From Octopus vulgaris (lineage: Eukaryota): a stretch of 64,000 bases of DNA. The stretch covers positions 18,414,001 through 18,478,000 of the forward strand of contig OX597833.1 in the NCBI GenBank assembly GCA_951406725.2, in the 5' to 3' direction. The stretch's first letter is position 1. Each line of letters begins with the position of its first letter. Position numbers and translations under genes: made by a program. Below, piece after piece: positions 1,380 through 42,960 of the stretch. The notes below the pieces were generated by a model. That model made no database searches and was not told the origin of the DNA. It was given only the letters and a program-made list of their open reading frames with translations.

Positions 1380-1610
1380 AGTCTTTTCAAATGGCTAATA
1401 ATGTGTGCGCGCGCCACTACTACACACATTGGAAAGCATTGTACAACCAAGTACTAAAGAAGATCTTTCCTCCTCCATGAAACAAAGCTGTTCCCGCTGG
1501 ACGTCAACCCAGTACTTCTAAGCTACGGGCTGAGTGATTTATTGTAAGGTTATCTCCCTAGATAGGTTGCCTTCACTACGGCTAAGGAGCCCTTTCTACC
1601 CCACTGACAC
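1380..1610 (-). mobile_element. 5' UTR of the RTE-like LINE, bordering a (TACA)n array
   Basis: Non-repetitive sequence between the ORF start and the microsatellite. Contains GAAGGCAACCTATCTAGGGAGA, similar to RTE 5' UTR motifs. Confidence 0.6.
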
Positions 1611-1611
1611 A

Positions 1612-1711
1612 GATATACATACATACACACACATACATACAGACAGACAGACATACACACACACACACACACATACACATACATACATACATACATACAT
1701 ACATACATACA

Positions 1712-1742
<31 letters not shown>
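1612..1742. repeat. (TACA)n/(CA)n microsatellite, representative of dozens in the window
   Basis: Directly visible. Confidence 0.95.
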
Positions 1743-1743
<1 letters not shown>

Positions 1744-1867
1744 GATGTGGTAGCGTTAAAGTCAAAGATTTACTTACGGATTCCATTATACAGTAAAACG
1801 TGAAAATCAGACAATCTTTGAGTAATATATTCTTCTATGCACAATCATACATACCCGTGCATGTATG

Positions 1868-2036
1868 TTGGCTGTATGGTAAGTAGCTTGCTTACATCCA
1901 CATGGTTCCGGGTTCAGTCCCACTGCGTGGCACCTTGGGCAAGTGTCTTCTACTATAGCCTCGGACCGACCAAAGCCTTCTGAGTGGATTTGGTAGACGG
2001 AAACTGAAAGAAACCTGTCGTATATATATGTCAATG

Positions 2037-2102
<66 letters not shown>

Positions 2103-2300
2103 TGTGTCTGTGTTTGTCCCTCCAACATCGCTTGACAACCGATGTTGGCGTGTTTACGTCCCCGAAACTTAGCGGTTCGGCAAAAGATACCGATAGAATA
2201 AGTACTAGGCTTACAAAGAATAAGTCCTGGGGTCGATGTGCTCGACTAAAGGCGGTGCTCCAGCATGGCCACAGTCAAATGACTGAAACAAGTAAAAGAG
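1868..2300 (+). mobile_element. tRNA-derived SINE, family A (internal TA/TG microsatellite, AGTAAAAG tail)
   Basis: A-box-like TGGCTGTATGGTAAG, B-box-like GGTTCAGTCCC and body GGCACCTTGGGCAAGTGTCTT; many near-identical copies in the window. Confidence 0.9.
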
Positions 2301-2329
2301 TATATATATATATATATTTACATACATAC

Positions 2330-2378
<49 letters not shown>

Positions 2379-2436
2379 GTAACAACAAAAGAATGAGACC
2401 TCGATATTAGATAAATGGAGGATTATTTATATACGT

Positions 2437-2493
2437 TAGCTGACGAGAATGTATCGTAGCTCTTCACTCTGACATTCGAAACTCCGAGTACTA
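2437..2493 (+). ncRNA. Type I hammerhead ribozyme motif
   Basis: TAG-CTGACGA-GAATGT...ACATTC-GAA-ACTCCGAGT-A-CTA: intact core, 6-bp stem II, near-palindromic stem III, GUA site; stem I only 3 bp. Confidence 0.65.
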
Positions 2494-3088
2494 TAATGAC
2501 AATCGCTTACTGCTTGTTTTAAATTATATCATATATATATATATAACCACATTCTTTCTTATGAGTGTTACTTTCGCACATGTCTTACCTTCATTCTGAA
2601 TTCTGTTGCATAACCAAAAGGCCTTCTGTGTAATCAAACACTTGTGTCCTTCGCTGTGTGTTTAATTTTTCGTTACAGTTTTTATTTTTATTTTATGTAT
2701 TTTCCAGCTTTCTTCCTAACTCGTCCTTTTTATCGTTCGGTCTTAGAGGCCCAGGTGTTTTTATTATTTTTTTCTCTTTGTATTTGTCACTTGTTTTATT
2801 GTGTCTTTCATGTTTGGTCATTCGACTGCAACATCCTCTTGTCGTTGACGCCACCAAATTGGACAACATTATTGAAATTGAGGCATCGAAACTGAGATGA
2901 TTCTTGGTCTATAACTAAGGAGGGACGATCGTGTCCGCGTCCTTTGTGTGTGTTTTGTTCTGTTTCGTGTATGTTCCTTTATCGTCCTCTCGTGCCACAT
3001 TTTACGATTGTCCGGGTTAACCGATGGTAGAGGCTAATATTTGAAACCTAAACACAGTTTAGAGTTTCTGAACATATAATCTTCTGCA

Positions 3089-28075: not shown

Positions 28076-28076
28076 C

Positions 28077-28142
28077 CGGGAAAGCGGAAGTCACGTCGCG
28101 GGTGATATATATATCACCCGCGACGTGACTTCCGCCTTCCCG
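28077..28142. repeat. 66-nt GC-rich palindrome (1 mismatch)
   Basis: CGGGAAAGCGGAAGTCACGTCGCGGGTGATATA|TATATCACCCGCGACGTGACTTCCGCCTTCCCG. Confidence 0.95.
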
Positions 28143-28438
28143 TCGTTCACCCGCGACGTCCCTTCCGCTGTTGTCTCTCTCGCCTGGCTCTCTCAAGGTA
28201 ATGGACGACATTTCTTTTGGCTCCGCTCGTCGACCATAAAAAATTCTGCGCTTGCAATACTTATTTCGTTCGGCGTCAACAGCCCTTCTTATCTTGTTTT
28301 TCCTTGTCTTGTCCTTACTGTTTACAATTTGTACTGTCGTTACTGTCCTGTTTTTACCATTTTTTACCCCTCTGTGAAAAGATCTCAGAATTTTAATTGA
28401 TTTGCTTTTCGCAGGAAGGAAAGTTTTCTTGTTGAAGA

Positions 28439-28501
28439 TACGTCTCGCTTTTATCCTTCGAAACGTAGAGTAGATGAAACCTTTAGCGACTGAAGAAGGG
28501 G
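28439..28501 (+). ncRNA. Candidate non-circularly permuted hammerhead, copy A
   Basis: TACGT-C-TCGCT...CTTC-GAA-ACGTA...AGCGA-CTGAAGA-A-GGGG. Stems III and I are perfect 5 bp; stem II is 4 bp with 2 GU pairs. Confidence 0.7.
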
Positions 28502-28721
28502 TTTTTTCTTTGTGTTAATTGTCCTGTACCCTATTTTTTTTTGCTGTTTTTAAATAAATGTCCAGTTCCTTTGGTTTGTGTCTATGTTTTCGTTTCTCAT
28601 TGTGTTCGACGTCCATCTGGTGTCCTGTACTCATATATGCGTGTATATGTACATGTAGAGGTAGGTACGTACATATATGTTTTATATATATGCATATGTT
28701 TTATTTTATTTATTGATATAT

Positions 28722-29880: not shown

Positions 29881-31345
29881 TTTCTTTATTAGCTACACAG
29901 GGCTGGACACAGACGGGACAAATTACAAAGTAGAGCTTTTCTTTTTGGGGAGAGAAAAACAAAAGCAGTAGGGCAGGTTTTCGATCAAAAGGGATCGTAA
30001 AAAAGAAAGAAAAAAAATTATCAATAGGGATCGTGTATCACAGATATGTCATGATGTAAATTGTAAAGGGGGAAGCAGATAAGGTTTATCCATGGAAAGA
30101 AAAGCCTACAGAAAAGACCACGGTAACCTCGGTCATTAATGTCACAGGTTAATACATTTATTTGCAAGTAAGTAAATCTCTGTTTTAAATTTTTCCAGGT
30201 TCATAGGATCATGCTCAAGGTGGCTTCGTCATTCATACGTGCCATCCTTACTACATTCACCCATCTTTTTTTTAAAACATTCGCTAGACAAAACTTGCCT
30301 CTCTACTCTCACTTTTCTTTTCAAGTGATACTTGAAGAAGTTGATGAGAGATCGACCAGAGAGGAAAGTGTTTGTCTCTAATCCTTTCAGATGCGTCCAC
30401 CATATACATTCTTTCGCCATAGCCACAAGGATGATGAAAATAGGTCTTCCTTCCCGTTTGAAGGAAGGAGGCGTGACGATATTGACCATAGACTCGGCTG
30501 ATAAACCGACTCGTCCCACACGTGACAGCAGTCGTTCGACATATGCCCACAGGTCGGAAATGGTTGGACACTGCACGAGTGCGTGCAGAACGGTTTCGTC
30601 GCTCTGACCGCATCTCGAGCAGGTCGGCCCCATGTTTCTCGAGCTGTGTCTGTAGAGCTTATCCCAAACTGTTAGCGCTTCTCGGTAGCACTGCCAGGTC
30701 AGGGATCTCTGGAAGTTGTCCATAGGTCCTGGCCCGAAAGTCGACCTGAACAGGCGGGTCAGGTATTTCTCATCGACGCCCAGGTTCGCCCCGAGCTCGT
30801 CGTCGTACCTCCCCTCCACTAATACCCTATAGAAAGCTTTGTTTGTGTTGAAGTCGCTCAAGGTCGACCCGGGACGGCATAGTTGCTTGACAGCAACGCG
30901 ACACTTGCAGTGCCATTCGCTCTTCCTCGGCCTCTTTTTGATCCACGACTGCAGTTCGGTCGTGGAGACGAGCTGCAGGAAAGCGTGCCTCACAAACGGC
31001 GACCACACCTGTTCACCGTCGTCTACGAAGAGCCGGAGATGTCGCCGTCTCAGCGCGTGTCTGCGCATCATCAACCGCGGCATGCCCAGTCCTCCTTTTA
31101 ACGGGTGTTGACAGCAAATGGATCGCCTGACCATCGAGATGCATCCTTTCCACAAGAAGCGGAACAGAATGCATTCTAGTTTGGTGATGGTAGGGTCGGG
31201 ACAAGGCACAACGGTCAGGCGGTAGTAGATGACGGACGCGATGTACGTGTTCGCCACCTCCGCCCGACCATTTGGGACAGTTTCCTCTCGGCCCATTGCC
31301 GGGCGAAAGTGACCATCCTTGTCGTTATCTCGTTCCAGCTCTTCT
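29881..31345 (-). mobile_element. 5'-truncated L1/Tx1-like LINE: ORF2 C-terminus (ORF 30229-31296) and 3' UTR
   Basis: LFRFLWKG, KGGLGMP and zinc knuckle CSRCGQSDETVLHALVQC; the 3' end finishes AATAAAGAAA. Confidence 0.88.
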
Positions 31346-32184
31346 CCATTTGGAGGTCCTCTTCACCATTTTGCCTTTATTTATTTTGTTCATTCTTTCC
31401 TTTCATTCATTCATTTACTAATTCATTCATTCTTTATTTCATTTTTTTTCTATCTTTTGTATCACTCACATAGAGTTATTATGGCCTCGGCTTCTAAATC
31501 CCCTCGAAGCAGTCTGTTCTTATTCTCTCATTTTCTTCGCCAAGTTACCATTTTCAGACTTCACACGAAACATTTCACAGAAATCTTTCCTTCACACAAC
31601 TATTCTATGTGTTTTCACTACTTAGAGTATGAAAGATTATTGCCTGCATGCACTGGTGATCATCCGGAAACAACTATTCTTAGAAATATGTTTTTCAAAG
31701 ACCATCGTGCCCTGCACGAAGTCCCACAGCTTGTTCGTTTCCAATTATTAAATATGACCACGATTAACATTCCTTCTAATTTGTACCTATTATTCATTAG
31801 TCGAAAAGAAATAATAAAACATAAACAAGCTGACGCTGCCTTCTGCCCTGTTATAAACATTGCTAGGAGACATTTCATTGAAAAGCATAAACAATGGCGT
31901 ACTTAATGTCGTCTGGGCCGCTCGGTAGAGACATTTTACTGAGTCAAATGCACTACTTCATACATATTTAAGCAATTCCTGATCCTCATTGAGGTACTAG
32001 TACGACCCATATTTCAGTACGGCTCACATGTCTAAAATGGAACAGCCACTCCAAATAAAAAACTGTACGAACATTCTAGATCAACTTCCTCCATGTACCA
32101 CCCACTGAATTCCTTTATACTTTTCTCGGTAGCTTTACTATATTTTCTTTCCCATAAATTCTGTGGCAAAATCTTCATCTGAAC

Positions 32185-41571: not shown

Positions 41572-42037
41572 TCGTACCTCTGATTCACGTGTAAACATAC
41601 GTTCCGAAATCCAGAGTGATTCTGATCCCGCGCATCTCGGATAAGGGATTACTAATTCTGCTCCCGCGCGCGCGCGCGCGTGTGTGTGTGTGTTGTGTGT
41701 GTGTGCGTGTGTGTGTGTTTTATGTGTGCTATGTATGCATGTGTGTGTGTGTATTGTGTGTTGTGTATGTGCGTATGTTGTGTGCTGTGCGTTTTGCGTG
41801 TAGCGTGTTGTGTGTTGTGTGTGTGAGTGTATGTGTGCAAGTGAGTGAGTGTGTATGCAAGAGATGAGTGTGTGTCTCTGTATGTATGTGTGTGTGCATG
41901 CATGTACACACACACATACACATGCGCACACAGATACACAGCGCAGCACAGTAATATCTAAATCAGTGATTCCCAACCTTTTTATGTAAATGAGCTTTTT
42001 TCCAGGGACCCCTTTTAATATGCTTAACTCTTGAAGA

Positions 42038-42100
42038 CTCATATTGTCGTTGAATGCCCGAAATAAGGAGTAGATAGGCAACCGACAACTGATGAAGGGT
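42038..42100 (+). ncRNA. Candidate non-circularly permuted hammerhead, copy B
   Basis: CTCAT-A-TTGTCG...GCCC-GAA-ATAAG...CGACAA-CTGATGA-A-GGGT. Stem I is 6 bp, stem II 4 bp, stem III 4 of 5. Confidence 0.7.
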
Positions 42101-42238
42101 CTTCTCTCTGTGTTTACTTGTCCTGTTTTCCATTTTTTTATTGTTGTTTACGTATTTCATGTTATTAGCACCGCTGGTGACGCGTCCTGTTCCCATATTT
42201 GCATGTATATACCTACGTACATATATATATGTGACCGC

Positions 42239-42960
<722 letters not shown>

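Follow-up and report, generated by a model that had tools for sequence, protein, structure and literature searches.

Copy B, which occupies 42031..42215 of the window (the whole 64,000-nt stretch of Octopus vulgaris DNA analysed here), is best explained as a truncated, likely inactive member of a repeat clan that likely derives from Naiad 3′ ends and whose complete copies would fold as a self-cleaving hammerhead with stem II formed through an upstream strand. We consider this explanation fairly likely as a whole, on the basis of comparisons between the sequences of many copies. The conserved core blocks of the clan follow one another in the order S-G-C (cleavage site, GAAA, CUGANGA), and the predicted fold comprises six helices, namely stems I and III, a stem II made by an upstream strand X with strand Z (X:Z), and three further helices, P4, P5 and P6.

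The blocks of copy B described in the first-pass annotation are present where it had placed them, including an A at H17 (Table 1). Homology of copy B to its family begins only at 42031, ~13 nt before the predicted cut, and the upstream half of the fold is therefore missing: P5-5′, P6, X and most of P4-5′ are gone, and four of the six helices need the ~70 nt of upstream sequence that has been lost. Compared with the family, copy B also carries private changes at 42058, 42065, 42078, 42081, 42102 and 42104, of which the first is a T>C in Z and the second a G>A in the stem III 5′ strand. The latter accounts for the one mismatch earlier noted in stem III: the stem itself stands (60 of 60 consensus cells paired), and the mismatched A is private, the family having G. 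Copy B is a decayed fragment and probably dead. A piece of another repeat (41963-42030, covered by contigs) abuts its 5′ junction; the start of this fragment resembles what we take to be a DNA-transposon terminal repeat. The second copy in the window, copy A, is complete (28366-28502), with core blocks spanning 28439-28502. At its 5′ junction lies a near-perfect 66-bp inverted repeat around a (TA) core, with promoter-like TGACGTCA/ACTTCCG-type motifs.

Table 1 Coordinates of copies A and B, their elements and the control repeat in the window.
Feature	Position	Strand	Remarks
Copy A	28076..28720	+	subfamily A member; unit ~870 bp in tandem copies
Copy A, short inverted repeat at 5′ junction	28076-28142
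Copy A, upstream module, P5 5′ strand	28366-28371	+
Copy A, upstream module, hairpin P6	28372-28414	+
Copy A, upstream module, X	28415-28419	+	predicted stem II 5′ strand
Copy A, P4 5′ strand	from 28421	+
Copy A, block S	28439-28450	+	H17 = C 28444
Copy A, Z	28455-28459	+
Copy A, GAAA	28460-28463	+
Copy A, stem III 5′ strand	28463-28467	+
Copy A, P4 3′ strand	~28476-28482	+
Copy A, stem I 3′ strand	28484-28489	+
Copy A, CUGAAGA	28490-28496	+
Copy A, P5 3′ strand	28497-28502	+
Copy B	42031..42215	+	subfamily B member, 5′-truncated; 3′ end approximate, enters (TA)n
Copy B, block S	42038..42049	+	stem III 3′ strand, H17, predicted cut 42043/42044, stem I 5′ strand
Copy B, CTCAT	42038-42042
Copy B, H17 = A	42043
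Copy B, TTGTCG	42044-42049
Copy B, block G	42055..42067	+	stem II 3′ strand Z, GAAA, stem III 5′ strand
Copy B, GCCC	42056-42059
Copy B, GAAA	42060-42063
Copy B, ATAAG	42063-42067
Copy B, linker and C region	42076..42101	+	decayed P4 3′ strand, stem I 3′ strand, CUGAUGA, strand D
Copy B, CGACAA	42083-42088
Copy B, CTGATGA	42089-42095
Copy B, strand D	42096-42101	+	AGGGTC; P5 3′ strand in family
Unrelated short repeat used as control	42236..42435	+	ordinary-order minimal PLE-type hammerhead, core 42305-42336

Both copies have abundant relatives, as expected of the mobile-element family that had been proposed for them. The pattern CGAAA-N20-30-CTGANGAAG matched 12,049 times in the 2.8 Gb genome, against 636 matches for a reversed-pattern control, and the repeat clan amounts to >11,000 genomic copies; a first look in the same genome with each copy returned 2,704 candidates for copy B and 2,441 for copy A. 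Tighter subfamily patterns gave 107, 1,041, 662, 26 and 366 matches, with 0, 0, 0, 0 and 5 in the respective controls. Subfamily B was matched in contigs of organisms B, C and D (1,573-3,004 contigs) and of organism E (7). A descriptor combining stems I and III with the core found only copies A and B in the window and produced a single match in 100 shuffles of 64 kb; among 222 pattern-found copies, 104 passed on core, stem I and stem III. The full descriptor (core, I, III, X:Z, P5, P6) was passed by copy A alone in the window and by 43 of the 222 copies, with no match in 340 kb of random genome or in 100 shuffles. The motif is real and goes beyond chance resemblance.

In the best-matching copies the 5′ ends vary, the 3′ end is fixed and the flanks are (TA)n. 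Most copies are single, with a unit of ~0.8-0.9 kb; head-to-tail copies with a period of ~835-880 bp were found at three loci (L042, L046 and L058), and other layouts include a 3′ fragment with a full unit and an inverted 5′ copy. Variable 5′ ends, a fixed 3′ end, (TA)n flanks and tandem or inverted layouts are hallmarks of Penelope-type insertion, and copies A and B belong to a (TA)n-inserted, 5′-truncated clan of non-coding retroelements. Two relatives deserve separate mention. One is a young S-G-C subfamily (L521:1500-1545, +) with the same linker in at least 13 among 100 matches listed for the family N pattern, although the copy that was fetched seems rearranged. The other is a strongly diverged S-G-C family (L522:1430-1545, +) with a 7-pair stem III, a local duplication in P6, X:Z of GCCCAA/TTGGGC and P5 of CAGCT/AGCTG. 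Elsewhere in the window, a 377-aa open frame at 30229-31362 (-) resembles the C-terminal part, presumably the zinc-finger region, of a LINE ORF2.

The predicted helices are kept by compensatory change among subfamilies. Removal of duplicates reduced 231 full copies to 205; 189 of these could be parsed, and 12 subfamilies of at least three copies each took in 144 of them. Across the 12 consensi, stem I was paired in 66 of 72 cells, stem III in 60 of 60 and X:Z in 59 of 60 (58 Watson-Crick, WC). Stems I and III, reported at the outset as different in sequence yet paired in the two copies, are compensated both between A and B and across subfamilies. The two other helices drawn in the first-pass annotation fared worse: its stem II (GCCC/GGGT), in which Z pairs with the strand D that follows CUGANGA, was paired in 47 of 60 cells (24 WC), and its fourth helix (GAAGAC/GTCTTC), made of bases private to copy B, in 49 of 72 (28 WC). 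In a larger set of 16 subfamily consensi, one of them the single copy L522, X:Z was paired in 79 of 80 cells (78 WC) versus 60 of 80 (30 WC) for D:Z, which can thus form but is not the selected pairing. A free search for P5 chose other registers in 5 of the 16 families, so that P5 and P6 were searched jointly, the best register scoring 14-20 points and the second best 11-15. The resulting counts for P5 (84 of 96 cells, 82 WC) and the closing pairs of P6 (62 of 64), like those for H17/P4 (P4 paired in 76 of 84 cells of the 12 consensi), are optimistic, because registers were picked by best pairing and 0-nt P5/P6 linkers were imposed. Both A (ACCCCT/AGGGGT) and B (GACCCT/AGGGTC) have this P5, and in each the P6 hairpin separates P5-5′ from X.

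Individual copies tell the same story. For a test on natural sequences, 19 copies were chosen by hand, one or two per type, plus copy B. Core nucleotides were invariant in 19 of 19, and over stems I and III, X:Z and P4 together 92.3% of cells were paired, with double changes in 15 of 20 pairs; slid-register controls paired in at most 47%, and none of 500 shuffles reached the score, bearing in mind that related sequences can beat such shuffles. In clades A-K, D:Z was paired in 93.4% of 76 cells, mostly as G-U and with one double change, and 478 of 500 shuffles matched it. In the subfamily with Z = CGTTC (26 matches), 24 copies retain X, and 18 of these carry the compensating C there, the others having G (4), A (1) or T (1). 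One copy (L263) has GAGCG/CGCTC for X:Z, which suggests a stepwise route to the GAGCA/TGCTC of family B, the order of steps being our reading of the sequences. The diverged family N (366 matches versus 5 in the control) has GCACC/GGTGC at 12 loci, including two copies counted twice, and GTGCC/GGCAC at 4 loci. In this family D reads AGAATT; it is mismatched to Z at the second pair but pairs with an upstream strand over up to 10-11 pairs. Neither a local upstream hairpin (Y:X) nor a 3′ splice site preceding X, two other candidate elements in this region, was conserved, and both were rejected.

The pairing possible between D and Z raises the question of a plain type-SGC hammerhead with D as stem II, in which X, P5 and P6 would be an inhibitory alternative fold, or switch, leaving most transcripts uncut. 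In its favour, every A-K subfamily allows 3-4 D:Z pairs, PLE hammerheads typically have an unpaired A ahead of stem II, copy B on its own can use only this fold, and most copies reach past the predicted cut. Family N nevertheless has a D:Z of one pair at most and keeps the whole core and X:Z, the strand after A9 in Naiad_Ovul also cannot, by eye, pair C11.1, and X:Z, which is made first, is ~4 kcal/mol stronger than D:Z in 11 of 12 consensi. We regard the switch as improbable, and take X:Z as the pairing that would form stem II.

CUGANGA, GAAA, U16.1 and an H17 other than G are all present, and helices I, II and III flank the core with covariation, helix II being formed by the upstream X. The pairing retained through compensation in an alignment of many copies bears out the non-circular permutation first recognised in copies A and B, and the fold is very probably under selection. 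Chance resemblance, or an ordinary type II fold, is extremely unlikely. The type II fold does not explain the consensus, because no GAAA is conserved 5′ of the cleavage block S, and chance is contradicted by the covariation and the descriptor nulls. What might speak for either is that an Rfam search of the window gave no match at gathering score, and by E-value only microsatellite or noise, and that pseudoknot-free folding placed neither copy better than shuffles (z -1.24 and +0.78), while still recovering P5 and P6 in copy A. Both are uninformative here, since such tools cannot represent pseudoknots.

The 5′ ends of insertions suggest cleavage of the selected fold. The 3′ anchor retrieved 93 copies, and 86 were kept after 7 had been left out as internal deletions. 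Among these, 14 of 55 at-risk copies end at 0..+14 from the predicted cut, compared with 3 events in -65..-1 (p = 3e-7, n = 86). The loss per 15 nt is 2-8% from +134 to +30, 13% at +15..+29 and 25% at 0..+14, and the sharpest drop point is at -8..-1, at the fold-predicted site. A core-anchored set gave 46 of 161, against 4-9% per 15 nt upstream (17 of 178 copies left out for low similarity). The whole of family B (38 copies) gave 6 of 20 versus 4 upstream events (p = 0.028), a noisier result that includes some internal deletions. No 5′-end stop was seen at P6, the strongest local hairpin. The unrelated short repeat next to copy B (5,277 exact 3′-motif matches, 62 examined), whose hammerhead has mostly C at position 4 and a palindromic stem III, was meant as a positive control; its 5′ ends did not gather at its own cut (2 of 58), and it had instead a fixed 5′ start ~105 nt before that cut, with 42 of 62 copies within 17 nt of it. 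Because the control piles up at a fixed 5′ start, a pile-up is to be read as an RNA 5′ end of any origin, with a spread of ~15 nt. Its position just 3′ of the predicted cut suggests cleavage in vivo, the attribution to the ribozyme following from that position.

The same 0-17 nt spread at the control's fixed start would also suit a fold that is selected but non-catalytic, such as a signal, derived from a hammerhead, through which the Naiad protein binds or packages the RNA; a second transcription start or a stop of reverse transcription would then account for the pile-up. We find this unlikely: clades with wholly different stems all retain every catalytic nucleotide, U16.1 and an H17 other than G, the drop falls at -8..-1 with no stop at P6, and no shared initiator is seen, because the site sequence differs among families. 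In our judgement complete copies are likely to self-cleave.

In the mechanism that we propose, helix II is X:Z, and P4, in which the G-to-C linker pairs with the strand following X, lengthens stem I. P5 joins the strand right after A9 to a strand ~45-75 nt upstream of the cut, and P6 lies between P5-5′ and X with no unpaired linker. A9 would not be linked to G10.1; rather, A9 would continue into P5, P5-5′ would abut P6, and P6 would abut G10.1. At the base of stem II, the A9.G12 pair, P5, P6 and stem II itself would form a four-way junction in which stem II stacks under the core and P5 on P6, and the RNA ends would leave through P5. The P5 3′ strand comes last in the transcript, so that assembly of the ribozyme would have to wait for the whole 140-nt domain. 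Cutting 150-230 nt before the unit 3′ end would yield unit-length RNAs from tandem or read-through transcripts; a reverse transcriptase started from the (TA)n target would run off at the cut and leave the many short copies, and uncut or re-ligated, possibly circular, templates would give long and partial-tandem copies. The blocks could in principle act in trans instead, as dimers or across tandem units, giving an ordinary-order hammerhead, as the tandem copies at L042, L046 and L058 and the dimeric action of PLE minimal hammerheads might indicate. All six helices, however, pair within one unit over short conserved linkers, copies are mostly single, and monomeric SGC ribozymes are known to work, which makes action in trans very unlikely.

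The likely mover would be a Naiad RT/endonuclease acting in trans. A PLE RT/GIY-YIG frame had been anticipated in the flanks, but in the loci retrieved the unit has no autonomous ORF attached, and no ORF-bearing copy continuous with it, as expected of a Neptune-like pLTR with its RT-GIY-YIG ORF, was found among 234 loci. Pieces of PLE ORFs occur in 6 of the 234 loci (781 kb) versus 1 in 404 kb of random DNA, and in the four ORF loci that were read (L054, L132, L181 and L190) a microsatellite separates ORF and unit. A Neptune-like (C-terminal-endonuclease) PLE partner, suggested by the GIY-YIG ORF of L054, was rejected as a neighbour across that microsatellite, and only 1 of 30 endonuclease loci, the seed, carried the motif. 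A PLE family at another locus (L111; G000:C25:40768500-40776500, -) is autonomous and young: its 781-aa RT and GIY-YIG frame is intact in many near-identical copies. The hammerhead in its 3′ region is of ordinary order and has a mutated core (TTGATAA).

The available part of Craig et al. 2021 (PMC8557442) reports no canonical hammerhead in Naiads and no permuted fold, and its supplement, likewise in part, lists Naiad_Ovul and Naiad_Esco among 8 'HHR_half_core' entries. In the sequences available, the 3′ UTRs of Naiad_Ovul and Naiad_Obim end, by eye, in the same six helices, in the order P5-5′, P6, X (GACACC), P4 (CGGAT), III (ATGGT), H17 = A, I (CTGCCC), Z (GGTGTC), GAAA, ACCAT, ATCCG, GGGCAG, CTGATGA and the P5 3′ strand, which forms 3 pairs, a mismatch and 2 G-U with P5-5′. 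In Naiad_Esco the S-G-C order can be made out by eye, together with I, III, P4 and P5; its X:Z is imperfect. The fold was seen in cephalopod Naiads and was not parsed by eye in the tails, as available, of ~8 other Naiads. A kink-turn between III and P4 seems canonical by eye in Naiad_Ovul; no register for it was found in the short repeats. Like Naiads as described in the accessible part of PMC8557442, the clan targets (TA)n, is 5′-truncated and has inverted or partial-tandem insertions, and by eye it shares its 3′-end ribozyme architecture with these cephalopod Naiads; it differs in units without an ORF and in stem sequences unlike those of Naiad_Ovul. On the shared architecture and (TA)n preference, both read by eye, the clan likely derives from Naiad 3′ ends, and its partner is likely a Naiad rather than a C-terminal-endonuclease PLE.

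We lean, with some reserve, towards a wider proposal: that a four-strand hammerhead, which is non-circularly permuted and in addition has a four-way junction opening its core between A9 and G10.1, may be the missing ribozyme of Naiads, that its cutting in vivo may surpass in efficiency that of ordinary PLE minimal hammerheads, and that its cut site may be recorded in thousands of octopus insertion junctions. If true, the finding would give animal genomes their first non-circularly permuted ribozyme, and no earlier natural hammerhead would have its CUGANGA block split from stem II; the assumption behind the six-permutation scheme and present search descriptors would be overturned. Why Naiads, dominant in many invertebrate genomes, seemingly lack hammerheads would become testable, insertion 5′ ends would serve as a genomic read-out of ribozyme activity, and the natural subfamilies would supply short constructs with ready compensatory pairs.

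Among known systems, non-LTR retrozymes (PMC4209133, PMC7229834, as far as available) resemble the clan as non-autonomous PLE derivatives with a hammerhead per unit and tandem copies. Tandem copies, part of the retrozyme layout to be looked for, do occur, but the type I ordinary-order hammerhead expected in each unit was not found here. The hammerheads of retrozymes and the minimal ones of PLEs (PMC4209133; bioRxiv 10.64898/2026.07.22.740005; available parts) are of ordinary-order type I, with a weak stem III and action as dimers, in contrast to the non-circular order, 5-pair stem III and mostly single 0.8-0.9 kb units seen here. The PK hammerhead (PMC11300833, in part) similarly draws helix II mostly from a distant strand and has an added helix; in it A9.G12 and G10.1-C11.1 close a continuous loop, whereas here the chain is predicted to exit after A9.

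Closest is the type-SGC hammerhead (HRIMA-1 and variants), an order known, according to the available part of Eckert et al. 2023 (PMC10085705), from metatranscriptomes only, with five RNAs validated in vitro, where they cleave as monomers. Common to both, as far as that source extends, are the S-G-C order, an intact core, a short stem I-II linker and a helix, right after the stem II 5′ strand, tying the far ends of I and II; here the site, GAAA and CUGANGA run 5′ to 3′, and P4 (the 76 of 84 cells noted above) joins the other sides. In the described ribozymes the stem II 5′ strand lies in block C, whereas here that strand and the I-II tie lie upstream of block S, P5 and P6 are inserted between A9 and G10.1, and the clan has >11,000 genomic copies, in an animal. 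Block C is not uninterrupted here, no stem II strand lying 0-2 nt after CUGANGA. The predicted junction is without tested precedent, because the accessible part of Eckert et al. assumes block C to be uninterruptible, with at most 1-2 nt beside CUGANGA in known hammerheads. The A9/G10.1 insertion is absent from the available parts of Perreault 2011, Forgia 2023, a 2025 review and a 2026 NAR paper, and a search of openly accessible papers gave no permuted hammerhead in an animal genome or in Naiads. Of the undescribed system first suspected in the window, the S-G-C order was thus already described by Eckert et al. 2023; the insertion of a four-way junction between A9 and G10.1, as predicted here, was not found in print and is the new feature of this variant.
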